Shown one piece after another: positions 15,685 to 50,229 of a DNA stretch of 64,000 nucleotides (positions within the stretch are counted from its first letter, which is position 1; the number at the start of each line of letters is the position of its first letter). The notes under the pieces are model-generated. The model was not told the origin of the DNA. It ran no database searches and worked only from the letters and a program-made list of their open reading frames with translations. Source of the stretch: Candidatus Latescibacterota bacterium (GTDB taxonomy: Bacteria; Latescibacterota; UBA2968; UBA8231); assembly GCA_022827835.1 (NCBI GenBank), contig JAJEIO010000032.1, positions 117,748 to 181,747 on the forward strand, given 5' to 3'. A program made the position numbers and the translations under genes.

Positions 15685-16425
15685 CTATTGCTCCTGTTCG
15701 GCGCGCCAGGCTTCGTATTCGGCGCGAGCTTCTTCGCTGAGCGGGTAGTACTTGCGCAGGTGGCCGCCCTCGGCCAGCTTCATGCGGCTGAAGTCCTCCC
15801 ACTCGGCGTGCGCTTGGGCCTTTTCGGTTAGTTCGGGAGCGAGTTGGGCGGGGACGACGGTGGCTCCGTCGTCATCAGCGACGATGATGTCGCCGGGCAT
15901 GACGAGGGTGTCGCCGCAGGCGATGGGCACGTTGACTGCGAAGGGAAAGATGTTGGTTTGGGTGTGGAAGTTGGGGGTTGTGCCGCGCAGCCAAAGCCCG
16001 ATGTCGAGGTCTTCGAGCACCTTGGGGAAGTCGCGGATGCAGCCGTCGATGACAGCGCCGATGCCGCCCTGCCCCATGAAGAAGGTGAGCATCATCTCGC
16101 CGAAGACGCCGCTGTGCATGTCGCCGCGCGCATCGACGACGATGATGTCGCCGGGTTGGGTGTGGTACAGGGCGTGGCGATGGAGCTGTTTTTCCGGGTC
16201 GGCGTATTCATCAACCGAGTATTGGTCTTCGCGCTTGGGCATGAATTGCAAGGTCAGGGCCGGGCCGACGACGTGCTTGCCCGGAGTGCGGGAGACGGGG
16301 CCTTGGATGTGGGGATCGCGGATGCCCAAGCGGGCTAATTCACCGGCAGCGGTCGCGCTGGAAATAGGGGCGAGGGCGTCGATGAGGTCTTTGGGTGGGC
16401 GTTGGATGTCGTTAGTTTCGACCAT
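15685..16425 (-). CDS. RraA family protein (4-hydroxy-4-methyl-2-oxoglutarate aldolase / RNase E regulator-like)
   Basis: GDIIVVDARGDMHSGVFGEMMLTFFMGQGGIGAVIDGCIRD is the typical RraA core. The stop lies 3 nt upstream of the sulfatase start. Confidence 0.8.
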   Translation of the reverse strand: MVETNDIQRPPKDLIDALAPISSATAAGELARLGIRDPHIQGPVSRTPGKHVVGPALTLQFMPKREDQYSVDEYADPEKQLHRHALYHTQPGDIIVVDARGDMHSGVFGEMMLTFFMGQGGIGAVIDGCIRDFPKVLEDLDIGLWLRGTTPNFHTQTNIFPFAVNVPIACGDTLVMPGDIIVADDDGATVVPAQLAPELTEKAQAHAEWEDFSRMKLAEGGHLRKYYPLSEEARAEYEAWRAEQEQ

Positions 16426-16517
16426 GATATCTCCTGTCGTTAAGTACGGGTATTTATTTAAGCTAAGAACGAGGCGTTGGTAGGGCCAATGCCGAAGACT
16501 CGCAGGGGTTTAAGAGG

Positions 16518-16545
16518 TTGCCTATTATTGGATATCTGGTATAGT
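16518..16545 (+). promoter_or_regulatory. Sigma70-like promoter candidate upstream of the ATPase gene
   Basis: TTGCCT (16518-16523), a 16-nt spacer, then TATAGT (16540-16545), in an AT-rich 180-bp intergenic region. Promoter rules for this lineage are unknown. Confidence 0.3.
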
Positions 16546-16604
16546 GAGCGGTCGTGTAAGAATCAGGAGAAGAGATATAAGCCCTCCCAATGAGGAGATG
16601 ACCT

Positions 16605-18158
16605 ATGTTGACCAGACTGAAAGTCTCTAACTTCAAAAATTTGGCAGATGTGGACTTATACCTCGGTCCGTTTACCTGTGTGGTCGGGCCGAATGGGGTG
16701 GGTAAGTCGAACCTGTTCGACGCGATTCGGTTTCTGAGCGCACTGGCCAATCACACGCTCATGGAGGCTGCCGCCGCCGTGCGCGACCAAGACAGCCGCA
16801 CAGCACACGTGCGCGACCTTTTCCACCGCGTGGGCAATCACTATGCCGAGCGCATGACTTTTGAGGCAGAAATGATCGTGCCGCGGCGGGCCATCGACGA
16901 CTTGGGACAGGAGGCCGAGGCCAGTATTACATTTTTGCGCTATTCCCTAGAGCTTGCTTACCGAGAGACGGCCGACAATTTGGTGCGAGGTAATCTCGCT
17001 ATTGTCAAAGAGGAATTGGTCCACATCACCCACCGCGATGCCCCTCGACATCTTTTATTTCCTCACAGCGCAGGGGACTGGCGCGGATCCGCAATGTACG
17101 GCAAGCGCCGTGCACCCTATTTCATTTCAACCGAAGGCGAGGGTGAAAACAGAGTTATAAAACTACATCAGGATGGCGGCAGTAGTGGGCGTCCTTTGCC
17201 CCGATCAGCTGCTAACCTACCTCGCACGGTGCTTTCCATAGCCAATGCGGCGGAAAGCCCTACGGTATTGGCTGCTCGCCGAGAAATGCAATCTTGGCAA
17301 ATGTTGCAACTGGAACCTTCGGCACTAAGAAAACCCGATGAATTTGGTGCTCCTACTCACTTAAGGGCGGATGGACGCTATTTGGCGGCTACATTGTATC
17401 GCTTGGGTCGCCATGCAGGGCAACAGGTGAGTCAGGACACTGTCGAGAGTTGGGAGTCAGATAATCAAGACATCAGTCCGGAACGGCTTCAATACTTGGC
17501 GGACCAACTCGACATTCAAGCCTTGGCCCCCCAAAAAGTATATAGCCAGATCGCCAACCGCTTAGCCGAACTCATCGACGGTGTAAATGATATTCACATA
17601 GAGCGGGATGAGAAGCGGGAGCTACTGACATTATACGTAAAAAACGAGGAGGGAACCTTGCATCCAGCACGTGCCCTGTCGGATGGCACCTTACGCTTCC
17701 TCGCTCTAGCCGTCTTGGAAAGCGATCCACAGATGCAGGGAGTGATTTGTTTGGAAGAGCCGGAAAACGGTATTCATCCGGCGCGAGTTCCGGCTATACT
17801 GCAACTGCTCAGGGATATTGCGGTGGATACTCAAGAGCCTGTTGGGGAGGATAACCCACTACGCCAAGTGATCGTCAATACTCACTCGCCTTCAGTATTC
17901 CAACAAGTCCCAGATGATAGCGTAGTATTTGTAAAGACAAGAGAAGCCATAGACGAGGAAGGACGCCTCTGCAAAAAGGCCCATTTTCTCTGCCTATCCG
18001 ATACTTGGCGAGCCAAAGTGAGCGAAGATGCTGCTCGCGGCGACCTGCTCCCTTATCTGAATCCGGTGCTGCCTAAGAATTACATAGAGGTATCAAAGCA
18101 GAAGCGGGTAGTCGATAGGGAGGATATGCAGCAACTCCTTCTGTCTTTTTCTGGGTAA
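16605..18158 (+). CDS. AAA_15/AAA_21-type (SMC/ABC-like, COG4637-like) ATPase
   Basis: N-terminal head KVSNFKNLADVDLYLGPFTCVVGPNGVGKSNLFDAIRFL (Walker A). C-terminal LSDGTLRFLALAVL (signature-like), VICLEEPENGIHP (Walker B-like) and VNTHSP (H-loop-like). AGGAG lies 7 nt upstream. Lower GC than the flanks. Confidence 0.85.
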   Translation: MLTRLKVSNFKNLADVDLYLGPFTCVVGPNGVGKSNLFDAIRFLSALANHTLMEAAAAVRDQDSRTAHVRDLFHRVGNHYAERMTFEAEMIVPRRAIDDLGQEAEASITFLRYSLELAYRETADNLVRGNLAIVKEELVHITHRDAPRHLLFPHSAGDWRGSAMYGKRRAPYFISTEGEGENRVIKLHQDGGSSGRPLPRSAANLPRTVLSIANAAESPTVLAARREMQSWQMLQLEPSALRKPDEFGAPTHLRADGRYLAATLYRLGRHAGQQVSQDTVESWESDNQDISPERLQYLADQLDIQALAPQKVYSQIANRLAELIDGVNDIHIERDEKRELLTLYVKNEEGTLHPARALSDGTLRFLALAVLESDPQMQGVICLEEPENGIHPARVPAILQLLRDIAVDTQEPVGEDNPLRQVIVNTHSPSVFQQVPDDSVVFVKTREAIDEEGRLCKKAHFLCLSDTWRAKVSEDAARGDLLPYLNPVLPKNYIEVSKQKRVVDREDMQQLLLSFSG

Positions 18159-18170
18159 GTCTGGCATCGG

Positions 18171-18809
18171 ATGCAGGAATTGCGCTACACGCTGCTGGCG
18201 GATGGATCGTCTGATCGCGCCCTCCTACCGATTCTCACTTGGCTGTTGCGCCAGTCTTGCGGTGCGATTCCTATCGAGGCGGAGTTTGCCGACTTGCGTC
18301 GCCTGCCACATCCTCCCAAAAAACTTTCTGAGCGCATTAACTGGAGCGTTGAACTGTATCCATGCGATTTGCTCTTTGTGCATCGGGATGCAGAGAGTGC
18401 CCCAATCGAAGAACGCGAGGCAGAGATTCGCAAGGCCTTAAAGGAAAGCTCAGTGGAAGATTCGGTACGCGTTGTTTGCGTGGTGCCTGTGCGGATGCAG
18501 GAAGCTTGGTTGCTCATCGACGAGGCTGCGCTGAGAAGGGCTGCCGGCAATCCCAACGGCACTCAGCCACTAGCTATGCCGGATGTGAAAAAGCTTGAAA
18601 GGTTGGCCGATCCCAAACAACTCATCTGCGGTCTCCTACGTCAGGCAAGCGGGCTTCGAGGGCGTCGCCTAAAGCGTTTCAGTTGGCGGTCAAGCGCACA
18701 TCGAGTGGCGGAAATGATCGACGATTTTAGTGTTCTGTACAGATTGGCCGCATTCCAGCGGTTGGCAGCGGCGGTCGAGCAGGTCTCAACCGCAGCGGAA
18801 TGGCGTTAG
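18171..18809 (+). CDS. DUF4276-like / Toprim-like small partner protein of the ATPase
   Basis: 212 aa, starting 12 nt after the ATPase stop. Acidic blocks YTLLADGSSD, LLFVHRDAES and VVPVRMQEAWLLID match my recollection of DUF4276. Not verified by HMM. Confidence 0.6.
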   Translation: MQELRYTLLADGSSDRALLPILTWLLRQSCGAIPIEAEFADLRRLPHPPKKLSERINWSVELYPCDLLFVHRDAESAPIEEREAEIRKALKESSVEDSVRVVCVVPVRMQEAWLLIDEAALRRAAGNPNGTQPLAMPDVKKLERLADPKQLICGLLRQASGLRGRRLKRFSWRSSAHRVAEMIDDFSVLYRLAAFQRLAAAVEQVSTAAEWR

Positions 18810-18837
18810 AGTCAAACTTTAAACTAGGAGGAAGCAC

Positions 18838-19932
18838 ATGACAGTGGAAGATCGCGGCTCGGCCATTCGGGTCGAGCGCCTGACGGCCATTCCGGTGGGG
18901 GCCAAGGGCTACGTGAAGGTGGAGACGAATATGGGGGTGGTTGGCTGGGGTGAGATCAACAACATGGAGACCAAGGTCGCCTGCGCCTTGGCCGAATCGC
19001 TGGGTTCGCTCATCGTCGGGGAAAACCCGACCCGCATTGAGCACCACTGGCAGCGGATGTTCCGCGCCCATCGCAACCTGCGCGGCGGCGGGCTGATGGT
19101 GCACGTGATTTCGGCTATTGACATGGCGCTGTGGGACATTGCCGGCAAGCTCTATCAGGTGCCGGTGTATCGCCTGTTGGGTGGCCCCTGCCGCGACAAA
19201 GTGTGGATGTATCCCAGCCCCAAGGCGATCAAGGTCGGCCCTGGGGGCGCGCAATATCACGCGGGGACGCCGGCTGAGGTGGCGGAGTTGGTGCAGCGGG
19301 TGGCTGACGCGCGCGCCAAGGTGGGGCCGGACGGGGCGGTGATGTTCGATGCGCACAGTATGTTGCCGTTGCCGCTGGTCAAGCAGTTTGCCGGTTATCT
19401 CAAGCCGGACGATTTGCTCTTTTTGGAAGAGGCGTGGGTACCGGGCAACATCGAGGCCATGCAGAAGCTGCGCGCGGCCGTGCCCGTGCCGTTGGCGACT
19501 GGCGAGCGCGATCGCACCATTTGGGAGGTGCGCGAGATTTTGGAGGCCCAAGTAGTAGATATCCTGCAGCCCGACTGCGGCCACGGCGGCGGCATTAGCC
19601 AGATGCAGAAGGTCGCTGCGCTGTGCGAGGCGCATCACGTGCCGATTGCCCCGCATTGCACTATGTCGTTTTTGGGCCTGACGGCGAGCTTACACGTGGC
19701 GGCATCTGTGGCGTTTTTCCTCATCCACGAGGGCTACGATCACCAATTGCCCGAAGGCGTGGCGCACAAGACGTGGACTTTGGACGCGGAGGGGTATGCG
19801 TCGCTGCCGGAGGGGCCGGGGTTGGGTGTGGAGATCGACGAGGAAAAGGCCATTGCCGTGGGGCAGGAGAGCGGGCGGCAGTTTAAGTGGCCGGATAATC
19901 GATTGCGGGATGGGTCGGTGGCAGATTATTAA
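18838..19932 (+). CDS. Enolase-superfamily dehydratase (D-galactonate dehydratase/MR-like)
   Basis: AIDMALWDIAGKLYQVPVYRLLGG, with metal ligands in MFDAH, FLEEAW and ATGERD, and ILQPDCGHGGGIS. AGGAGG lies upstream. Confidence 0.85.
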   Translation: MTVEDRGSAIRVERLTAIPVGAKGYVKVETNMGVVGWGEINNMETKVACALAESLGSLIVGENPTRIEHHWQRMFRAHRNLRGGGLMVHVISAIDMALWDIAGKLYQVPVYRLLGGPCRDKVWMYPSPKAIKVGPGGAQYHAGTPAEVAELVQRVADARAKVGPDGAVMFDAHSMLPLPLVKQFAGYLKPDDLLFLEEAWVPGNIEAMQKLRAAVPVPLATGERDRTIWEVREILEAQVVDILQPDCGHGGGISQMQKVAALCEAHHVPIAPHCTMSFLGLTASLHVAASVAFFLIHEGYDHQLPEGVAHKTWTLDAEGYASLPEGPGLGVEIDEEKAIAVGQESGRQFKWPDNRLRDGSVADY

Positions 19933-19935
19933 AAA

Positions 19936-19975
19936 GGAGCCTTTATCTGCAAAAGAGATCGCAGATAAAGGCTCC
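19936..19975 (-). terminator. Intrinsic terminator-like hairpin between convergent genes
   Basis: Perfect 15-bp stem ggagcctttatctgc / gcagataaaggctcc with a 10-nt loop. On the minus strand it is followed by TTTTTAATAA, downstream of the 20039..22318 gene. An A-tract on the plus side could make it bidirectional. Confidence 0.7.
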
Positions 19976-20038: not shown

Positions 20039-22318
20039 CTATTCTTCTTCTATTACTTCCTCTTCTACTACTTCCCCTGCTACTACTTCTATCTCAAGGA
20101 ATTGAATACCTTGGAGCAATAAATCTACGTCTTGCTGCGTAGAAATAGGCGCTGGGGGAGGGCCAGGAGGGCCAGGAGGAAAAGATTCGGGAGGTGGCAG
20201 TTCGTCAGAGCCGCCTTCGGGTTCGCCTTCTACATCTTCACCGTCGCCTTCATCTTCTTCACCTTCACCGCCTTCACCCTCTTCACCTTCACCACCTTCG
20301 GGTTTGCCTTCCCCTTCCGATTCGCCTTCCCCTTCACCACCTTCAAGCTCAGGCGGGAGCTCAGGCGGTGGCGGGGGAAGGGGTGGCGCGACAAACGCCA
20401 AGCGAGCTTTTAAGAGGACGTTCTCGTCGGGTTTATTCAGGCGGGCAAAAACATCATCGAGCGATTCCTCACTAGGAGGGCCAAACGGTGGTGGACCGAA
20501 TAGTAGCTCATCGGGTCCTAATATTGCGGCGGATCCCACTTCGAGTTGGTAAAAACCAGGGAGCAGCGTATCCGGCACGCTCAGGGATAGCGCGACTTCC
20601 CGGTCCTCGATCCGTCCCACGCGCAGCGAAGTAGTAATATCCAGCGTGCTCCCAAGACTGATAACCGTGTCGGCCGCAACCTTCGCCACAGTGGCAAAAC
20701 GAGTCTCGGGAATCACTTCGACCTGCACCTCGGCCTCGCGCACGTATACGGCGTAATCGTCCCGCGTCATAAGTTCCACGAGTGCGAATGACACATCGTC
20801 ATAGGCTTCGAAAATTGAAGCCAAAAGGCGTCCGCCTGGTGAGGAGTAGAGCCGGGAACGAGTGAGTGTTGAATCGGAACCGGCAAAGGCAATATCCGTC
20901 GTAACGCGGATACTGTGATTAGGATCGTTGTCGACCCGGTTGGCCAAGGGAGCAAGGAACGCATTGCCGACGAGATCGAGCGAGATATATGGGCTGATGC
21001 CGACGGCCATTCTGTGATTGAGTTCGAGTTCGCTCCCCGAGGGAAACGTATAGACGCTCTTAATGGGTACTAGGTCTGGTTCCTGCTCGAGTACGCCGCG
21101 CACTGCGGGCAGGCGGTCTTCGGTCAGGGTGCCGCGCACCGTTGGGTTTAGGGTTGTAAACTTGAACGGGGCGGACAAGTTGGAGATTTCGCCGAGTACT
21201 TTTGCTTCGATTATGGGAAGTTCTACCGGGCCAGAACTGTTCATTGGATGCCCAAATCCATAGACCCGGTTGCCATCGACGTACGATACGGTTCCCACTG
21301 CACCGAGCGTAAGCTCACCGAGCAGCAAGCCAACGGTCAGGGGTCTGCCGGCCTCAAAGCTCTCCTGCCGCTCTTGGGTTAGACCAGCGGCGCTGGCTCC
21401 GCTCAGGAGGGAAGAACGCCCTTCAGGCAGCGGATGCACTCCATTGAGTCCCGTGCTCAGCAAGGGGATATCCAAGGGAGTAATGCGGTTCCCTTCCCAG
21501 GTGGCTGTGGGTTTAGCCGCTGGCATAAGCCCCCGCGTGCCGATGACCCATTCTATGGGGGTGGCAAAAAAGTAGTACGGCGGGCTGTCCTGGGAATTAA
21601 ATCCATAAGCAATAGCGCCCCAGGTGCCTTGCTCCGTAAAAATGGGCGAACCGCTCATACCCTTAGCAATGCCCCCGAGCTGTATCAAAACAGGATCGGA
21701 GGATTCGACCATATAGATCGGCATGGGTGCCAAGAAATCATCGACCACCTGGACGAACGTCATTTCGAGATCGGCCAGTTCACCGTGGGCAAATTCAGTG
21801 CGCATGAATACGGTCGTACCAACGGGCATGGCACGAACCTCGTCAACCGAGACAATGGAAGAAAGATCCCAGGGCTTTAACTCCCCGGTTGGCCGGAGAA
21901 CCGCTGCTGGAGCCAGTAGTGAACCGGCAGCGGCCAGCATGGAATCAGCGGCGGCGATCATGGTGTTCGCAGCGGCTAGCATGGAAGCCGCATCGGCGGC
22001 TATGGTCGAATCGGCGTCCGCAGCGACCATTGCATTCGCAGCGGCGATCATCGAATTAGCGGTAGCCATCATGTCATTAGCAGCGGCCAGCATGGAATCG
22101 GCATCAGCGGCGATAGTGGAATCGGCGTCTGCGGCGATCATGGTATTGGCAGCGGTGATCATCGAATCGGCGGTGGCCAGCATGGTATTGGCGGCGACCA
22201 GCATGGAATCGGCCGTGGCGATCATCGAATCGACGGCAGCAGCCGTTGGTGCAGAATCGTCGTCTCCACAACTCCACAAAGCAACGGCGAGGGTGAATAG
22301 GGCTAAACGGATCGGCAT
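20039..22318 (-). CDS. Lipoprotein with peptidase S55 (SpoIVB-like) serine protease domain, Ala-rich heptad stalk and acidic/Pro-rich C-terminal tail
   Basis: Lipobox MPIRLALFTLAVALWSC. Residues 27-135 are A(A/T)(A/D)(D/N)(S/T)M(I/L) heptads. IAKGMSGSPIFTEQGTWGAIAYGF...ATPIEWV matches the SpoIVB catalytic-Ser block GMSGSPI...G.IGAV...IEW. The C-terminus is PPELPPELEGGEGEGESEGEG...EEEVIEEE. Confidence 0.75.
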   Translation of the reverse strand: MPIRLALFTLAVALWSCGDDDSAPTAAAVDSMIATADSMLVAANTMLATADSMITAANTMIAADADSTIAADADSMLAAANDMMATANSMIAAANAMVAADADSTIAADAASMLAAANTMIAAADSMLAAAGSLLAPAAVLRPTGELKPWDLSSIVSVDEVRAMPVGTTVFMRTEFAHGELADLEMTFVQVVDDFLAPMPIYMVESSDPVLIQLGGIAKGMSGSPIFTEQGTWGAIAYGFNSQDSPPYYFFATPIEWVIGTRGLMPAAKPTATWEGNRITPLDIPLLSTGLNGVHPLPEGRSSLLSGASAAGLTQERQESFEAGRPLTVGLLLGELTLGAVGTVSYVDGNRVYGFGHPMNSSGPVELPIIEAKVLGEISNLSAPFKFTTLNPTVRGTLTEDRLPAVRGVLEQEPDLVPIKSVYTFPSGSELELNHRMAVGISPYISLDLVGNAFLAPLANRVDNDPNHSIRVTTDIAFAGSDSTLTRSRLYSSPGGRLLASIFEAYDDVSFALVELMTRDDYAVYVREAEVQVEVIPETRFATVAKVAADTVISLGSTLDITTSLRVGRIEDREVALSLSVPDTLLPGFYQLEVGSAAILGPDELLFGPPPFGPPSEESLDDVFARLNKPDENVLLKARLAFVAPPLPPPPPELPPELEGGEGEGESEGEGKPEGGEGEEGEGGEGEEDEGDGEDVEGEPEGGSDELPPPESFPPGPPGPPPAPISTQQDVDLLLQGIQFLEIEVVAGEVVEEEVIEEE
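21914..22240 (-). repeat. About 15 tandem 21-bp (heptad) coding repeats
   Basis: Recurrent gcggcgatcatgg / gcggccagcatggaatc units encoding AADSMIA-like heptads, with a higher-order duplication (ANTMIAADADSTIAADADSMLAAAN versus ANAMVAADADSTIAADAASMLAAAN). Confidence 0.8.
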
Positions 22319-23240: not shown

Positions 23241-24149
23241 TTACTCGTCGGCGTCTAGCAGGTTCCTAAAGGCTTCGAGGCTGGGCACCTGTATGGAAGC
23301 CCGATGCAACTGCTTGAGACGCGGCACCTCGTCGATGGCCGCAATCTGGTCGGCTAAGCGGCGCACGGCCGGCGGCTGAAAGCGCAGTTCTAGCACTTCT
23401 TGGATGCTTTCGCGGATACCTTGCTCAATGCCTTGCTCAATGCCTTGCTCAATGCCCTCCTCGCGGGCTTGTTGGGTCAGGTATTGGGCAAACGAGGATT
23501 CGCGCATGAAGTCCATGAGATACTCCTTGGAAACGATGGCCGTGATCGTCTGAGGATTATACACTAAGCTGCTCAACAGCGTCAACCCGGTGAGCACATC
23601 GGCTTTGACCGACCGCGCCAGCGGCATGTCCCACGCCTTGGCCACACACTGCTCTAACCACGCGGCCTCAGCCTGTCCGGCTGGCGGCTGCATCAGGGGT
23701 GCAAACGGCAGCAAGCCCACCGATCCGCTGTCGAGCACGGCCTGACCGGGGAGCTGACTCAGACGGAGCACTTTGTAGCGGATCACGACTAGATGGTCGG
23801 GATGCTCTTGAATGTAGTAGCCCGGATCGCGTCGTCCGGCATCGGGGCGCAGGTAGAGGACATAGGAATGCACCGGCAGACCGTAGCGTTCGATCAGGCG
23901 GCCGATGTAGCTGGCCATGCGGAGGGGCATGGGGGGATCGGTGCTGTCGGTGGTTTGAAACTCGTGGTGGACCAACACCTCCTTGCCGCCGATGCACACG
24001 CGGAGGAGGCTGTCCGGGCGGCGGACGTTGGGTTGCTCGGTGTCGAGCACTTCAACGCCTTCGATGTCATCGCGCTGGAGGGTGAAGCGGGCGAAGTCGG
24101 CCGGGTAGGTTTGGATTAGGTGCTTGGAAACGATGTCGATTTCGGCCAT
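23241..24149 (-). CDS. Rpn-family recombination-promoting nuclease / putative transposase (PD-(D/E)xK, with DUF4351-like C-terminus)
   Basis: DIVSKHLIQTYPADFARF..., RRPDSLLRV...VLVHHEFQTTDSTDPPMPLRMASYIGRLIERYGLPVHSYVLYL, and the C-terminal EEGIEQGIEQGIEQGIRESIQEVLELRF...LKQLHRASIQVPSLEAF. Confidence 0.75.
   Translation of the reverse strand: MAEIDIVSKHLIQTYPADFARFTLQRDDIEGVEVLDTEQPNVRRPDSLLRVCIGGKEVLVHHEFQTTDSTDPPMPLRMASYIGRLIERYGLPVHSYVLYLRPDAGRRDPGYYIQEHPDHLVVIRYKVLRLSQLPGQAVLDSGSVGLLPFAPLMQPPAGQAEAAWLEQCVAKAWDMPLARSVKADVLTGLTLLSSLVYNPQTITAIVSKEYLMDFMRESSFAQYLTQQAREEGIEQGIEQGIEQGIRESIQEVLELRFQPPAVRRLADQIAAIDEVPRLKQLHRASIQVPSLEAFRNLLDADE
23419..23454. repeat. Perfect 3 x 12-bp tandem repeat (ccttgctcaatg) inside the Rpn-family gene
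   Basis: Read directly from the sequence. It encodes (EQGI)x3 on the minus strand. Confidence 0.95.
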
Positions 24150-24375
24150 GGCAATCGGTTAGTAATTAGGGCTTGGCAAGCTATCCGAACTGGATTGCGG
24201 GTGGGGTGGTATCCGCAATAGGCAAAAATCGTGCTAGGGCGGCGGCTCAGAGGGGAGGCGGGGGATAGGAGGTGCTGGAGTGTAGCGGAAAGGTTACAGG
24301 AATGGGAAAGTTGGGGACAAAAGCGGCGTAACGTCAGTTAATTAATCGGAATAAATTAAGTTATGGGCTTATCGT

Positions 24376-24669
24376 CTAATGTATGTGAAGTTTTCCAGGT
24401 TCGCGCGCAGGCTCCCCGTCTCTATAAGCACGTTTTCCAGCCAAGCGACTGCTATCGGGCACTTCTATCCAGCCCAGAAGAAGGGGCGTCCGCGTTCTGA
24501 TCAAATCCCTCTGGATTGATAGACTTTCATCAATAAGATCCCAATGGCCTTCACTTTCCTCGTAATAAGTGTGGAATACGTCGGGTATCAGATCTAGCTC
24601 AGTAAAGTCTGCATACACGACAATAACAGTGCCATCTTTGGGTGCGGTATCCATCGGCTTCCAACTCAT
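24376..24669 (-). CDS. Small hypothetical protein with N-terminal W.P..TAPKDGT motif (DUF551-like)
   Basis: MSWKPMDTAPKDGTVIVVY... AGGAG lies 8 nt upstream. The region is AT-rich. The C-terminal tail may be read-through. Confidence 0.45.
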   Translation of the reverse strand: MSWKPMDTAPKDGTVIVVYADFTELDLIPDVFHTYYEESEGHWDLIDESLSIQRDLIRTRTPLLLGWIEVPDSSRLAGKRAYRDGEPAREPGKLHIH

Positions 24670-24687
24670 AGAAAATCTCCTGTATGT

Positions 24688-25269
24688 TAAAAGATGAACT
24701 GCTGTTGGGCTTTCTGTTGGCGTCCCAGTACGGACGGTGTGTCAAACCGCTTGCCCTCCAATAGTTCCTCGACGGTCATAAGCTGCATCTTGGGGAAGTC
24801 GTGGCCCCGAATGGTTATATGACCGGCCCGCACCATCTCGCGCTTGAAGTTCCGTTCTTTCGTCGTTGAAGAATATATCGCCCTGCTTCTTGCGCTTGCC
24901 TACGTCGTCGCGTACTCGACGTAGGCTGTAGTCGTCATACGCGGCGTCTCGCACGGGCAGCGAGTCGCGGTCTTCGGCGTAGAGGATGAATACTAGGTGG
25001 TAGAATAGAGTTAGGGCGGCGTTGCGCACTTCGGACAATGACGCGGCGGGCGCGGCCTTGAAAATAGCATCAGCGAGTTGTAGGTCGTCCTCAGTTTGGG
25101 TTTTGTTGGGGCTACCGTCCGTGGGGAAGCGGTCGAAGAGCGACTGCACCTCGCTCTCGAATGTGGCGAGGTCGTGATCGTCATAAGCCTTCCACTCGGG
25201 AAATTCTGCAATGGAGCTGTCGAGGAGGTCTTGGGCGAATAGACTGCCTTGGAAGTAATTTTTGAACAT
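24688..25269 (-). pseudogene. Decayed restriction-modification (type IIG/BREX PglX-like or type III-like) DNA methyltransferase remnant
   Basis: The N-terminal-like piece is MFKNYFQGSLFAQDLLDSSIAEFPEWK...KTQTEDDL...LTLFYHLVFILYAEDRDSLPV...YSLRRVRDDV. It is then frameshifted onto a typical methylase C-terminus, which I translated by hand: FKREMVRAGHITIRGHDFPKMQLMTVEELLEGKRFDTPSVLGRQQ...*. No catalytic core lies in between. Confidence 0.6.
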
Positions 25270-25410
25270 AAATAATAGGCGAAGATGGATAAGTTACTGG
25301 AAGCTATCTTACAAAGAATCGTCCCCGCCACATCCCCTTCGCGTCGTCTCCTTGTCCGTCTTCAATCCAGCATTGGCTTATGGATATTCACTTCGGTCGG
25401 AGGAGGTGCT

Positions 25411-36186: not shown

Positions 36187-37056
36187 ATGACCAGCTTTCA
36201 ATACATTGGGAGTTTGAGGATCGCAACCGTCCTCTGTTTTTCGTTACTACCGGATCAATTGGTAGGTGTAGAAGGAGACTATAATGTGTTGGATCGGTCG
36301 GAGGTGTTGGCGGCGATGCGGGAGCATTATGGTAATTATGAAGAACTAACATCGACGACCAATGGCGCGTGGTTGGCGGATGTGGTGCTTTCTCTTGCGC
36401 GGCAAGCTCGGGAGCGCGATCCGGACGGCCCGCCCCTGTTTATCGGGCACGAGGAGTGGTTCCGGTCGTTTTTGGCGGTGACCGGGCATACAGAGCATAC
36501 GGCACCGCGGTACGCCCTGCTAAACTATCGCTACGAACAGAATATGGAAGTGGACTATCGGCTGGATCGAGTCATCCGCGAGGTGGTGGAAGGGCCGATG
36601 CCGGAACTGGCCTTGAATGTGCGGATTAGCTGGGAGGACGGGCCGGGTAGGCCAGACCGGTATTCGTACATAGATACGCTTTCGACGCCGACTGTTAGGG
36701 TGACTAATCGGCAGATGATTACCTATCGCTTGCTGGATTTTGGCGATTGGATTGTTTACGACGAGATCGAGGGGATTACAGTGCGTCCAGAGTCCGGCGT
36801 ATTAGCTCTTCTTTTTCAGCTTATTGGCGAGGGACATATGACACATTCCCGCATAGCCGTTGCAAAGGACGGCATTCAGGTGGCGCGGACGAGGGCAGAG
36901 AAGGCGTATATGAAAGTGATGATCACGGTGGCGATCTATCCAGATGGGACTGTAGAGAGGGATTTGCCGGAGGGCCGAACAGACCTGCTGGAACTGGAGG
37001 AGCGGCTCAAGCAGCCGATGGAAATTGATTATGTGGAATTCCCGAGCGATAGGTAA
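36187..37056 (+). CDS. Secreted hypothetical protein, tandem paralogue A
   Basis: 289 aa. Signal-like LRIATVLCFSLLP. No recognisable domain. About 75% identical by eye to the next gene. Confidence 0.65.
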   Translation: MTSFQYIGSLRIATVLCFSLLPDQLVGVEGDYNVLDRSEVLAAMREHYGNYEELTSTTNGAWLADVVLSLARQARERDPDGPPLFIGHEEWFRSFLAVTGHTEHTAPRYALLNYRYEQNMEVDYRLDRVIREVVEGPMPELALNVRISWEDGPGRPDRYSYIDTLSTPTVRVTNRQMITYRLLDFGDWIVYDEIEGITVRPESGVLALLFQLIGEGHMTHSRIAVAKDGIQVARTRAEKAYMKVMITVAIYPDGTVERDLPEGRTDLLELEERLKQPMEIDYVEFPSDR

Positions 37057-37909
37057 TGTCGGCAGGAGGTTGAGGATTGTAACCGTCCTCTGTTTTTTGC
37101 TACTGCCCGGTTCGCTGGCGGGTGCAGAGGAAGCGTATAATGTGGTGGATCGGTCGGAGGTGCTGGCGGCGATGCGGCAGCATGGTGATTACGATCCGAC
37201 CGCGACGACTAATGGTGCGCGGTTTCAGGCGGAAGCGGTGTTTTATCTTGCGCGGCAAGCTAGGGAGCGCAATCCGGACGGTCCGCCACTGTTTATAGGG
37301 TATGAGGATTGGTTTAGAGCTTTTTTGGAGGTGACTGGGCGGACGGAGCATACAGCGCCTCAGTTTGCGCTGCTGAGCTATCAACACCGACAGAATATGG
37401 AAGTGGACTATCGGCTAGATCGGGTCATTCGGGAGATAAAGGAAGGGCCGATGCCGGAACTGGCCGTGAATGTGCGGATCAGTTGGGAGGATGAGCCGGG
37501 TAAGCCAGACCGGTATTCGTACTTAGATACGCTTTCGACGCCGCGTTTTAAGGTCACTAATTGGCAGGTAATGACCTATCGCTTGCTGGATTTTGGGGAT
37601 TGGGCTGTGTACGATGAGATTGAGGGGATTACAGGGCGTCCAATGTCCGGCGTGTTGGCTCTTCTCTTTCGGGTTATTGGCGAGGGACGTATTGCACACT
37701 CTCGCATGGCCATTTCAGAGGACGGCATTCAGGTGTCGCGGACGGCGGCAGAGAAGGCATTTATGGGAGTGACGACTACGGTGACGGTGCATCCTGATGG
37801 GATTATGGAGAAGGATGTGCCGGAGGGGAGATCGGATCTGTTGGAACTAGAGAAGCGGCTCAAGCAGCCAATGGAAATTGATTATGTGGAGTTCTTGGAC
37901 GGTAGATAG
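36217..37909 (+). repeat. Tandem duplication of a whole gene (period about 843-856 bp)
   Basis: Anchors: ggatcggtcggaggtg at 36291 and 37147; gcagcc(g/a)atggaaattgattatgtgga at 37021 and 37864. Confidence 0.85.
37025..37909 (+). CDS. Secreted hypothetical protein, tandem paralogue B
   Basis: 294 aa. RRLRIVTVLCFLLLPGSLAGA. Colinear with paralogue A through the shared C-terminus KQPMEIDYVEF. The exact start is uncertain; the ORF overlaps A by 32 nt. Confidence 0.65.
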   Translation: MIMWNSRAIGNVGRRLRIVTVLCFLLLPGSLAGAEEAYNVVDRSEVLAAMRQHGDYDPTATTNGARFQAEAVFYLARQARERNPDGPPLFIGYEDWFRAFLEVTGRTEHTAPQFALLSYQHRQNMEVDYRLDRVIREIKEGPMPELAVNVRISWEDEPGKPDRYSYLDTLSTPRFKVTNWQVMTYRLLDFGDWAVYDEIEGITGRPMSGVLALLFRVIGEGRIAHSRMAISEDGIQVSRTAAEKAFMGVTTTVTVHPDGIMEKDVPEGRSDLLELEKRLKQPMEIDYVEFLDGR

Positions 37910-37951
37910 TATTCAGTCGAGAAGCATAGATTTGTTGAGAAAAAAATCAAG

Positions 37952-38719
37952 GTGAGCGAATCCGTCGAACGCTTTTACGATGATCTAGCTGCTGAGTACC
38001 ATCACGTTTACGCCGACTGGGAATCGGGAATCGAACGGCAGGCATCCGTGCTAGATCAGTTGATCCAATGTGAGTCTTCAGCGGGTAAGTCGGTTGTTCT
38101 AGACTGTTCCTGCGGAATAGGCACCCAGGCAATTGGCCTAGCGCAGCGAGGATACAAAGTCTTCGCGTCCGATCTCAGTCCGAAGGCGGTCGCACGGGCA
38201 GAAGCAGAAGCAGCCAAGCGAGAGCTAAATGTGCGATTCGCGGTTGCCGATGTTCGCGAGTTGGAATGTGCGTTTGACCAGAAGTTCGACGTAGTGATCA
38301 GCTGTGACAATTCCCTGCCGCATCTTTTAACTGACGAGGATTTAACGCTTGCTCTGCGAAATATCCGGCGCGTACTGACGGACAAAGGATTGTTTGTTGC
38401 CAGTATTCGCGATTACGATCGGTTACTCGCGGAAAAACCATCGTTTGTAGCTATGAATCCTGGCGGTACACATGAGGAAGAAGTAATAGTGTTTCAGATC
38501 TGGGACTGGTCCAAGGAATCAGATACCTATCTATTGCGGCTTTTTATAATGAGTCGGGCGGCGAGTGACTGGCGGGTGAAGGAGATCAAGACTCGTTACA
38601 GAGCAATAAGACGCAACGAGCTTACTGCGGCCTTGGAGTCAGCCGGATTTGCAAAAGTCGCTTGGCATAAGCCTGAGCAATCTGGCTATTTTCAACCTAT
38701 TGTGACGGCGCGGGCCTAA
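37952..38719 (+). CDS. Class I SAM-dependent methyltransferase (glycine/sarcosine N-methyltransferase-like)
   Basis: GTG start. FYDDLAAEYHHVYADW, VLDCSCGIGTQAIGLAQRGYKVFASDLS (motif I), SIRDYDRLL (GNMT-like). Confidence 0.65.
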   Translation: MSESVERFYDDLAAEYHHVYADWESGIERQASVLDQLIQCESSAGKSVVLDCSCGIGTQAIGLAQRGYKVFASDLSPKAVARAEAEAAKRELNVRFAVADVRELECAFDQKFDVVISCDNSLPHLLTDEDLTLALRNIRRVLTDKGLFVASIRDYDRLLAEKPSFVAMNPGGTHEEEVIVFQIWDWSKESDTYLLRLFIMSRAASDWRVKEIKTRYRAIRRNELTAALESAGFAKVAWHKPEQSGYFQPIVTARA

Positions 38720-38766
38720 ACGAGTAGCAAATTCTTAGACTTCGACAAAGAGTTAGGAGATAAACT

Positions 38767-39465
38767 ATGGTTGACAAATCAATTCTGCAGGAACAAGTCG
38801 CCTATTACCGGGCGCGCGCTGATGAGTATGACGAGTGGCATTCGCGCCAAGGACGATACGACCGGGGCGACGAGCACAACCTTCAGTGGCATGCAGAATT
38901 GGATGCTGTGCGATCGGCACTTGAGCGGGAGAGGCCGTTCGGCAAGTGTCTTGAGCTCGCTTGCGGCACGGGATTGTGGACGGCATGTCTGGTACAGGGT
39001 ACTGATGACCTGACGGCCATAGATTCTTCTCCCGAGACGATTGGGATCAATCGCACTAAGATTGGTAATGCTCCGGTGCAGTATGTGGTGGCAGATCTTT
39101 TCGAGTGGTGGCCAACCGAAACGTATGATTTCGTCTTTTTTGGTTTCTGGTTGTCGCACGTTCCAGCACAACAATTCAATCGGTTATGGGAGATGGTTCG
39201 CGTCGCTCTAAAGCCGGGGGGTAGAGCTTTTTTTGTTGACGGTCTGGCGACTCAGGAATCAACCGCACGGGATCACGCTGCAATCGACGATTCGGGCGTA
39301 ATGGAACGGAAGCTGAACGATGGCCGGACATTTAATATCGTAAAAGTATTCTACGACCCGAATCAGTTGGAACGGCAATTGCGCGATCTTGGCTGGAATG
39401 GCTCAGTTGGAACAACCGGAGAGTTTTTTTACTACGGTTGCATGGTGCCGACAGAAATTGGCTGA
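38767..39465 (+). CDS. Class I SAM-dependent methyltransferase
   Basis: CLELACGTGLWTACL (motif I), AIDSSPE, LKPGGRAFFVD. Confidence 0.7.
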   Translation: MVDKSILQEQVAYYRARADEYDEWHSRQGRYDRGDEHNLQWHAELDAVRSALERERPFGKCLELACGTGLWTACLVQGTDDLTAIDSSPETIGINRTKIGNAPVQYVVADLFEWWPTETYDFVFFGFWLSHVPAQQFNRLWEMVRVALKPGGRAFFVDGLATQESTARDHAAIDDSGVMERKLNDGRTFNIVKVFYDPNQLERQLRDLGWNGSVGTTGEFFYYGCMVPTEIG

Positions 39466-49564: not shown

Positions 49565-49795
49565 ATGCAGATCATTCGCGTAAAGACCAAAAGGGAAGCA
49601 CTTCGTGAAGTTCAGCGGCGCAGGAGTACGCCGGAAGGAGCGGGATTGATTTATAAAATTGTCGAATCGCGCTTTGGCAACGGGTTTAAAATCGTGGCCA
49701 TGGATCCGGATATGTACGTGGATATGCTGACGGGCGAGTTGCCGACCATTCCCCAACTCAGAGGCCGCTCCCCGATGGGCAGAGTGGGGACCTGA
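49565..49795 (+). CDS. Small hypothetical protein (76 aa)
   Basis: GAGGAG lies 6 nt upstream of ATG 49565 (the track ORF starts at GTG 49547). Its stop overlaps the next start (TGATG). The region is AT-richer. Confidence 0.5.
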   Translation: MQIIRVKTKREALREVQRRRSTPEGAGLIYKIVESRFGNGFKIVAMDPDMYVDMLTGELPTIPQLRGRSPMGRVGT

Positions 49796-50229
49796 TGGTT
49801 TCGCAACCTGACGAGACTGGCGACGATGGCAAGAAGCAAGAGGTCGTTTCTGCCGATGACAGACAACATGAGATTGCTGGCGAACTGATTGAACTCCAGC
49901 GCGAACGGAACGAACTCCAGCGCGAACGGAACGAGCTTGCTAGAGGTTATTTGGAACTTAGCCAACAAGAGACCCAACTTGATTACGATTTGGCCGTCAA
50001 AGAGCTAGAGATAGAAGACGAACAGAACAAGAGAGCACACCGACTGATGTGGTTGATCGGCGGCGGTTTTGCGCTCGTATTATTTCTGCTGCTGTACATG
50101 GTGTTCTATGGAAGCGAGGCCCAAGCTGGTAAGGCTGAGAAACTACTAATCGGGATAATTTTATTACTGGGTGGTGCCTCTTTGCGTGATTTGATGGGTA
50201 GAGTTCAAAAACGCCTCAGCAATCGCTAA
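49795..50229 (+). CDS. Coiled-coil protein with two C-terminal TM helices
   Basis: ELIELQRERNELQRERNELARGYLELSQQE..., followed by LMWLIGGGFALVLFLLLYMVFYG and LLIGIILLLGGASL. Confidence 0.55.
   Translation: MVSQPDETGDDGKKQEVVSADDRQHEIAGELIELQRERNELQRERNELARGYLELSQQETQLDYDLAVKELEIEDEQNKRAHRLMWLIGGGFALVLFLLLYMVFYGSEAQAGKAEKLLIGIILLLGGASLRDLMGRVQKRLSNR
49891..49932 (+). repeat. Perfect 2 x 21-bp tandem repeat (gaactccagcgcgaacggaac)
   Basis: Read directly from the sequence. It encodes ELQRERN twice. Confidence 0.95.

Follow-up and report, generated by a model that had tools for sequence, protein, structure and literature searches.

The two adjacent genes described here lie in a 64,000-nucleotide (nt) stretch of a Candidatus Latescibacterota bacterium genome (contig JAJEIO010000032.1, positions 117,748 to 181,747), the whole of which is called the window below. 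Judged from the profiles that their products match, they are a chromosomal copy of the two-gene module named HEC-01 by PADLOC, an already catalogued candidate anti-phage system. Gene 1 (16605-18158, 517 amino acids (aa)) and gene 2 (18171-18809, 212 aa) are open reading frames (ORFs) of the plus strand, co-directional and separated by a 12-nt gap. An earlier note on this DNA had presented them as an uncharacterised candidate defence module wedged into a catabolic locus. The arrangement of the two genes and the motifs quoted in that note were all present in the ORFs and their translations, and the candidate-defence reading is a reasonable one in view of the PADLOC matches to both proteins. Two further parts of the description did not stand: the pair is neither new nor recently inserted, and is an ordinary further member of a known, poorly understood candidate family. 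We estimate at roughly 0.6 the probability that it is a defence module in which gene 1 would provide an ATPase sensor or controller and gene 2 a metal-dependent, Toprim-like nuclease effector, a model patterned on PARIS, Gabija and OLD. The locus does not contribute a novel type of system, and a specialist running PADLOC would label the pair at once.

Family identity of the two proteins

The HEC-01A model of PADLOC (PDLC04184) matched gene 1 with an E-value of 6.8e-101 (336.5 bits). This was the best of its 138 PADLOC matches, and the AriA, mad3, GajA and PtuA models scored far below it (approximately 1e-29 to 1e-13). Gene 2 had nine PADLOC matches, all of them to HEC-01B models; in the match to PDLC04210 (E=5e-27), residues 1-204 were aligned with positions 1-207 of the 217 positions of the model. 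The two window genes are adjacent and co-directional, which is the gene order of HEC-01. HEC-01 (Hma-embedded candidate 01) was defined as an ABC (ATP-binding cassette) ATPase with a TOPRIM-like partner, embedded in Hma systems, and HEC-01B was described as Toprim-like in structure and HEC-01 as retaining the metal-binding site of OLD (Payne et al., bioRxiv 10.1101/2024.01.29.577857). The window pair has the same order, the gene of the ABC ATPase preceding that of the small Toprim-like protein, and both proteins match the hidden Markov models (HMMs) strongly. It differs in that it stands alone in a metabolic gene string, outside any Hma system, and is probably co-transcribed with an enolase-family gene.

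Gene 1 encodes an ABC ATPase of the AAA_15/AAA_21 type, the architecture that the earlier note had read from its sequence. The Pfam matches were to AAA_21 (5.7e-29, 102.6 bits for a cutoff of 27), AAA_15 (3.2e-16, 60.4 bits for a cutoff of 32.1) and SMC_N (2.5e-11), and no Toprim domain was found in it with Pfam. The motifs GPNGVGKSN (residues 28-36), LSDGTLRFLALAV (358-370), VICLEEPENGIHP (380-392) and NTHSP (425-429) are present in the translation. Their conservation was scored in 61-70 homologues showing 48-93% identity, 61 of them for the catalytic motifs, which are all on the plus strand. In the Walker A motif, or P-loop (16686-16712), the residues G28, N30, G33, K34, S35 and N36 are invariant. 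The ABC signature LSDGT (residues 358-362, 17676-17690) has L358, S359, D360 and G361 invariant. The Walker B region VICLEEPE (residues 380-387, 17742-17765) is marked by the invariant residues C382, E384, E385, P386, E387 and N388; E384 occupies the usual Asp position and E385 is presumed to be the catalytic Glu. The H-loop, or switch motif, NTHSP (17877-17891) keeps N425, T426, H427 and P429 in every sequence.

The large insert of the ATPase contains a hypervariable loop, approximately residues 267-312 (17403-17540, plus strand), in which not a single column was conserved among 70 homologues. Indels of approximately 8-34 aa separate close relatives in this loop, and close homologues range from 473 to 522 aa in length. 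A 34-residue stretch of the window copy is absent in the relative L012, and the segment is almost wholly substituted in L003; outside the loop, identity in these two is 81-91%. We propose that the loop may be a sensor or specificity surface, and its hypervariable, indel-rich nature makes it a natural candidate for a specificity determinant. A sequence search of solved structures aligned only the P-loop head and the C-lobe of gene 1 (with OLD, SMC, Rad50 and PtuA), the best match being the N-terminus of an OLD-family ATPase (6p74). The AlphaFold2 model of gene 1, built with 54 close homologues, was too poor for use, with a predicted local distance difference test score (pLDDT) of 41.3.

The assignment of gene 2 to DUF4276, made in the earlier note, stood for the family and not for the protein taken singly. 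The Pfam model PF14103 gave gene 2 itself a sub-threshold score (18.1 bits against a gathering score of 30.2, E=0.0033) over residues 78-126 only. The same model matched 51 of 73 diverse members of the gene 2 family at E<=0.01, with a best value of 5e-7, and the family is therefore placed, on these profile matches, in a divergent DUF4276 clade to which gene 2 belongs. Some clusters of gene 2 homologues also carry a precomputed PF14103 match. The family is made of uniform single-domain proteins of 205-220 aa; clustered at 90% identity, it comprises at least 5,932 groups, and at 50% identity (E<=0.001) 1,681.

The AlphaFold2 model of gene 2 (pLDDT 95.5) shows a Toprim-like alpha/beta N-terminal half of four beta-alpha units, with strands at residues 4-9, 35-39, 67-71 and 100-104, followed by a helical C-terminal half. 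The translation contains YTLLADGSSD (residues 6-15), FVHRDAES (69-76) and PVRMQEAWLLID (106-117), and conserved residues were located just past three of the strands. The acidic loop DGSSD (residues 11-15, 18201-18215, plus strand) lies directly past beta1, where Toprim domains have their catalytic Glu; all 73 sequences have D or E at position 11, G12 is invariant and D15 is found in 72 of them. HRDAE (residues 71-75, 18381-18395, plus strand) lies directly past beta3, at the position of the Toprim DxD, here in the form D-x-E/D, with H71, R72 and D73 invariant (73/73) and E or D at position 75 in 72 of the 73. Past beta4, the segment PVRMQEAW (residues 106-113, 18486-18509, plus strand) includes the invariant E111 as well as P106, M109 and W113, and E143 is likewise invariant. 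The Toprim domain is characterised by a Glu past beta1 and a DxD past beta3 (PMC12065111). The acidic residues of gene 2 fit this pattern, with a conserved acid past beta1 and a DxD-type motif past beta3, and DUF4276 has been placed in the Toprim superfamily in the literature. The best full-length structural match of the gene 2 model, ranked third by Foldseek, was the Toprim-containing C-terminal region of BpOLD from B. pseudomallei (6nk8_A, E=0.017, probability 0.96, template modelling (TM) scores 0.41/0.43). Nothing meaningful was returned by the sequence search of solved structures with gene 2, and no significant match by Foldseek against viral structures.

The 80 best genome loci were found with a gene 2 motif, and a gene 1 homologue, full or truncated by the contig end, lay directly upstream on the same strand in all 79 testable loci. 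In the lone untestable locus, the contig ends 20 nt from the start of gene 2. The homologues are thus conserved neighbours, a point which the earlier note had proposed to check, and the paired loci span Latescibacterota, Spirochaetia, Acidobacteriota, Cyanobacteria, Chloroflexota, Planctomycetota, Desulfobacterota, Poribacteria, Entotheonella and others. The identities of gene 1 and gene 2 to the window copies are correlated (r=0.93, n=72). The pairs have a median intergenic spacing of -4 nt, the extremes being -20 and +20 nt, which indicates that the two genes are translationally coupled. This obligate co-occurrence and co-evolution, together with the invariant residues K34 and E385 of the ATPase and D11, D73, E75 and E111 of the partner, provide handles for the study of HEC-01.

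History and transcription at the site

All the close relatives that were found carry the pair beside the same RraA-like gene and, usually, beside the same enolase-family gene. In pairwise comparisons with eight relatives, the ratio of nonsynonymous to synonymous substitution rates (dN/dS) was 0.08-0.24 for gene 1 and 0.11-0.23 for gene 2, and 0.04-0.13, 0.04-0.08 and 0.12-0.16 for the RraA-like, enolase-family and sulfatase genes, respectively. The dN of the pair lies above the values of the RraA-like, enolase-family and GDSL-lipase genes and in a range overlapping with the sulfatase, so that the pair evolves faster than most of its neighbours, the sulfatase being the exception. Its dS is in the same range as that of the flanks or somewhat above. 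From these values, we conclude that both genes are, as far as substitution patterns tell, functional and under purifying selection, and that the pair is an old fixed resident, vertically inherited at this site since the clade diverged. The recent insertion implied by the word wedged is contradicted by this common location in every sampled close relative and by a dS like that of the neighbours. No empty site was observed among the metagenome contigs scanned with the RraA-like protein; the scan returned one close relative, in which the pair was present, and the remaining contigs were altogether without synteny and hence uninformative on insertion. Direct or inverted repeats bracketing the pair were not found, and no mobility genes were seen near it. 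A search with Rfam gave no credible family, the single match being far under the gathering score.

The pair is more AT-rich than its flanks, as the earlier note had remarked. The guanine-plus-cytosine (GC) content is 0.528 for gene 1 and 0.563 for gene 2, compared to 0.63-0.645 in the neighbours. At third codon positions (GC3), the values are 0.542 and 0.582, against 0.806 for the RraA-like, 0.823 for the sulfatase and 0.803 for the enolase-family gene, and against a window mean of 0.711 with a standard deviation of 0.087 (57 ORFs). The dip is confined to third codon positions, GC1 and GC2 being ordinary. This persistently low GC3 suggests an old foreign origin of the pair.

The identity of the two flanking genes given in the earlier note agrees with the precomputed Pfam matches of an identical contig. 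An RraA-like gene lies to the left (15685-16425, minus strand), and the gene to the right (18838-19932, plus strand), with matches to MR_MLE_N and MR_MLE_C, belongs to the MR_MLE family of the enolase superfamily. Sulfatase and GDSL lipase genes are found further away. The gene string that the note had called purely catabolic is mostly metabolic, and also holds several family-less ORFs, of 759, 302 and 175 aa.

The divergent intergenic region between the RraA-like gene and gene 1 (16426-16604) contains a GAGGAG ribosome-binding site ahead of gene 1 (approximately 16592-16598). It also contains the promoter-like site TTGCCT-16-TATAGT (16518-16545), from which the pair had been credited with an AT-rich leader of its own. 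The site is present; the scan observed two such sites where 1.7 were expected by chance. The upstream region is 85% identical in nine relatives and TTGCCT is kept in eight of the nine, whereas the -10 hexamer is altered in most of them and deleted in L011 and L012. A sigma-70-type promoter upstream of gene 1 was rejected on these two grounds, a match no better than chance and a -10 that is not conserved. On the other side, no terminator-like site was found between gene 2 and the MR_MLE gene, which follows after a 28-nt spacer with an AGGAGG ribosome-binding site. Since a terminator is lacking there and the promoter-like site is no better than chance, the pair and the enolase-family gene probably form a single transcription unit, as predicted from these signals. 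A 17-bp hairpin located 3' of the enolase-family gene (19936-19975) is likely the end of this unit, shared with the convergent gene for the 759-aa protein.

An arrangement of this kind, conserved in the lineage, raises the question of whether the pair serves the catabolic operon around it, for instance by regulating or assisting the enolase-family enzyme. In three Spirochaetia metagenome-assembled genomes (MAGs) (L091 8481-12615, L092 8487-12850 and L093), the pair is also located upstream of, and co-directional with, an MR_MLE gene. This gene is a different one, 38% identical to that of the window, and the pair stands approximately 9 kb from an RraA-like gene 74-75% identical to that of the window. 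The resemblance could be due to chance in catabolism-rich genomes or to gene exchange between the lineages. Outside the Latescibacterota and Spirochaetia, MR_MLE was found near the pair only as one weak match of 22% identity. The relatives L011 and L015 keep the pair without the enolase-family gene, and the codon usage of the pair differs sharply from that of the operon. No conserved third gene was found elsewhere: in 29 diverse loci, the 116 neighbours of the pair matched 159 Pfam families, each in three proteins at most, with no recurrent partner. An SMC-like ATPase with a nuclease-like fold has, in addition, no evident catabolic role. For all these reasons, we consider a role within the catabolic operon to be extremely unlikely. 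Co-option is a distinct possibility, to which we give a small chance: in the Latescibacterota and Spirochaetia MAG lineages, the HEC-01 pair, chromosomal, fixed and expressed from a catabolic operon, would have been co-opted for either a non-immune nucleic-acid role or a nutrient-linked immunity. This would imply that the widespread HEC-01 family is not simply a phage-defence system.

Related systems and the proposed mechanism

The window pair resembles several systems in which an ABC ATPase is associated with a Toprim-type effector. MAD3 and MAD4 of the validated MADS, listed as 'MADS3-4' among the ABC ATPase and TOPRIM systems in the PARIS paper, are likewise an AAA_15/21 ABC ATPase and a DUF4276 protein. 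Gene 1 matched MAD3 at 4.3e-42 and gene 2 matched MAD4 weakly, and these scores are far below the NCBIfam cutoffs (144.7 bits against 420 for MAD3 and 13 bits against 160 for MAD4). No other mad genes stand beside the pair, whose neighbours are the sulfatase, RraA-like, MR_MLE and GDSL lipase genes; the only mad2-like matches are generic S-adenosylmethionine (SAM) methyltransferases located approximately 19 kb away. Membership in MADS was rejected and the locus considered HEC-01-like because both cutoffs are missed widely and no mad genes lie nearby. The pair might alternatively be an orphaned sub-module of a larger methylation-associated system (MADS or Hma), inactive on its own here. The MAD3 and MAD4 matches, the discovery of HEC-01 embedded in Hma systems and the lack of defence by stand-alone HEC-01 in its first test are in keeping with this idea. 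Against it stand the distance from the MADS cutoffs and the lack of a methyltransferase or helicase partner adjoining the pair, both here and at most of the other loci. Moreover, the stand-alone pair keeps intact motifs and purifying selection, in at least 79 species-level genomes, and a representative annotated as HEC-01 is reported to be protective. An orphaned, inactive sub-module therefore appears very unlikely.

PARIS has the same layout, with adjacent genes for a separate AAA_15/21 ABC ATPase (AriA) and a small Toprim-family effector (AriB). AriB is a DUF4435 protein, however, and gene 2 matched neither DUF4435 nor AriB with Pfam or PADLOC; the AriA models, for their part, score far below HEC-01A on gene 1. 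Membership in PARIS was rejected from the lack of an AriB or DUF4435 match to gene 2. According to the PARIS paper, AriA releases AriB, which cuts tRNA, and PARIS is often encoded in viral genomes; this mobile lifestyle differs from the near-absence of the family of the window pair from phage and plasmid records, its clade having no phage matches. OLD and Gabija share with the pair an ABC ATPase head and Toprim nuclease chemistry, and OLD proteins gave the best solved structures for both genes (6p74 for gene 1, 6nk8 for gene 2). OLD and GajA carry the ATPase and the Toprim domain in one polypeptide, with a UvrD helicase as a further component of Gabija, whereas two separate proteins are encoded here and no helicase gene adjoins the pair. 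Membership in Gabija or OLD was rejected, as gene 1 lacks a Toprim domain and no helicase is adjacent. AbiL (AbiLi/AbiLii) and RloA/RloB are also two-gene combinations of an ABC ATPase with a small Toprim-superfamily partner, and the AbiLi model matched gene 1 at 6e-22. Their partner is RloB (PF13707), to which gene 2 has no match, and AbiL was rejected on this account. In Menshen (NsnB ATPase, NsnC variants), a DUF4276 Toprim-like domain is the predicted effector beside an ABC ATPase, as here. Menshen has three genes and its DUF4276 is the C-terminal domain of NsnC, in contrast to the free-standing 212-aa protein and two-gene unit of the window.

By analogy with PARIS, Gabija and OLD, we propose the following mechanism. 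An oligomer of the gene 1 protein would hold or gate the nuclease-like gene 2 protein, and would sense a cue derived from the invader via its variable insert. ATP binding or hydrolysis would then free or activate the gene 2 protein, whose acidic residues D/E11, D15, D73, E/D75 and E111 may bind metal and cut nucleic acid. Cleavage would stop the invader or the infected cell, and would in this way confer a protective phenotype on this organism.

Some of the homologues are located in what are clearly defence loci. One homologue locus contains a Gabija-like OLD-Toprim ATPase with a UvrD helicase, an SNF2/NOV_C helicase and a DUF1156 gene. In others, a type III restriction enzyme, a DUF1156 methyltransferase, a PLD helicase, DrmD, HmaA/B or a defence reverse transcriptase was observed. 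Such contexts are sporadic. The earlier note had proposed to look for an enrichment in defence genes, and PADLOC families (E<=1e-10) numbered 74 among the 116 neighbours of the pairs against 9 among 72 control neighbours, where the matches were much weaker. These values suggest some enrichment, on a crude comparison with no proper statistic. Most of the candidates of Payne et al. were not enriched near other systems (bioRxiv 10.1101/2024.01.29.577857). In a cold-seep study, E. coli B was reported to be protected by one HEC-01 representative from at least one of the phages T4, T5 and T7 (bioRxiv 10.1101/2024.09.26.614923).

Several observations weigh against the defence reading. The published tests of HEC-01 disagree: in E. 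coli, HEC-01 conferred no protection from any phage that was assayed (Payne et al., bioRxiv 10.1101/2024.01.29.577857), and the positive result is thinly documented, the accessible part of the cold-seep report giving neither a fold-reduction nor mutants for HEC-01 (bioRxiv 10.1101/2024.09.26.614923). The evidence on the function of a very large ATPase-DUF4276 family thus consists of two phage tests, one negative and the other positive with scant documentation; to this extent, the pair is not the uncharacterised one of the earlier note, and the mechanism of the family is no more tractable from the window locus than from thousands of others. The Toprim-like nature of gene 2 agrees with the pattern of acidic motifs and was weak in our own tests. 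Foldseek returned no match of the model at E<=0.001. Similarly, hhalign of the family profile against the OLD-like_TOPRIM protein of locus L095, a single target sequence giving low sensitivity, yielded a probability of 0.3, so that profile similarity to an OLD-like Toprim protein, another difference from OLD, is not detectable. The structural comparison is only suggestive, and the assignment draws mainly on the literature and on the motif pattern. With regard to genomic company, most of the contexts inspected are metabolic or housekeeping ones and not defence islands, and the control used for the enrichment consisted of the neighbours of an unrelated metabolic gene, a different type of sample, with overlapping HMM families counted. 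A search of 50,697 phage records returned no gene 2 homologue, and one of 72,556 plasmid records returned only two. The HEC-01-type module is hence often located outside defence islands and off mobile elements. Finally, fixation in a lineage and a probable shared transcript with a catabolic gene are unusual for an accessory defence gene.

The same observations are favourable to a housekeeping function in nucleic-acid maintenance (DNA repair, recombination or RNA processing) without immunity, comparable to that of RecF, an ABC ATPase, with RecR, a Toprim protein. The fixed chromosomal site in all the sampled members of the lineage, the purifying selection, the contexts mostly outside defence islands, the first HEC-01 test without a phage phenotype and the scarcity in phage and plasmid records all go in this direction, and the N-terminus of gene 1 resembles the heads of RecF, SMC and Rad50. 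The similarity to RecF is limited, however, to the first 67 residues or so (38.9 bits against a cutoff of 172), and membership in RecFR was rejected for this reason. A housekeeping function is also difficult to reconcile with the atypical codon usage of the pair, with an evolution faster than that of the RraA-like, enolase-family and GDSL lipase genes, and with the indel-rich loop of the ATPase. The 80 best loci occupy unrelated neighbourhoods in many phyla, with no lineage-wide synteny outside the clade of the window, some homologues lie inside restriction-like or Hma/DISARM-like loci, and one representative was protective in a published study. We regard the housekeeping function as unlikely.

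A selfish addiction module, similar to a toxin-antitoxin system, would have the ATPase restrain a nuclease-like toxin, and the pair would be maintained mainly through the harm caused by its loss. The tight coupling and overlap of the two genes and their strict co-evolution would be in line with this explanation. The pairs also occur as single insertions amid unrelated genes, frequently close to small toxin-antitoxin-like genes of the PIN/RHH or HepT/MNT type, and the Pfam label of AAA_21 mentions a type IV toxin-antitoxin system. Plasmids are where addiction modules thrive, and the family shows almost no plasmid carriage; at the fixed site of the window, no mobility genes or flanking repeats were seen, and the dS values point to long vertical inheritance. 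These points make an addiction module quite unlikely. Its mechanism overlaps that of an abortive-infection defence, and the two are not fully exclusive of each other. The reading that we favour remains that of an ATPase-controlled nuclease acting in defence.

Surrounding genes and variable spots

In sister Latescibacterota genomes, two variable spots with differing cargo were observed, both within approximately 3-6 kb of the pair. The first contains DUF4160, DUF2442 and DUF4238 genes in L003 (4295-5711) and three dynamin-like GTPases in L004/L005 (1-4215). The second contains an SIR2_2-DUF4020 protein and an Eco57I-type enzyme in L010 (16118-20639), and a weakly matching ApeA_NTD1-like gene in L007 (9083-9493). 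Because of this different cargo in the sister genomes, the neighbourhood of the pair behaves like a hotspot for accessory, partly defence-like genes. In the window, synteny with L010 stops near position 24346, and the next kilobase (24346-25400) has the lowest GC content of the region (0.48-0.51) and contains small ORFs with no Pfam family. One of them, the 175-aa ORF at 24742-25269, has a weak match (6.6e-07) to parts of the DrmMI and type IIG methyltransferase models. It is possible that this segment is a remnant of L010-type cargo.

Several other ORFs of the window are atypical. The gene at 20039-22318 (minus strand) codes for a 759-aa protein with a lipoprotein-like N-terminus, repeats of the ADSM/AANTM type and an acidic, proline-rich tail. 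Its sole family match is a weak one to Peptidase_S55, and its GC3 of 0.57 is as atypical as that of the pair. The protein shows 68-91% identity among relatives whose flanking enzymes are 90-99% identical. The 302-aa ORF at 23241-24149 (minus strand), without a Pfam family, has an (E/Q)GI repeat near its C-terminus; some sister genomes conserve it at 88-97%, and a fragment of 35 residues is what is left of it in L004. A second block of low GC3 (0.52-0.62) covers positions 36187-39465 and is composed of four co-directional genes, two of them family-less and two coding for SAM-dependent methyltransferases (Methyltransf_25) whose PADLOC mad2 matches look generic. An isolated 144-aa ORF at 49795-50229, with no Pfam or PADLOC match, has a GC content of 0.49 and a GC3 of 0.51, far below the window mean.

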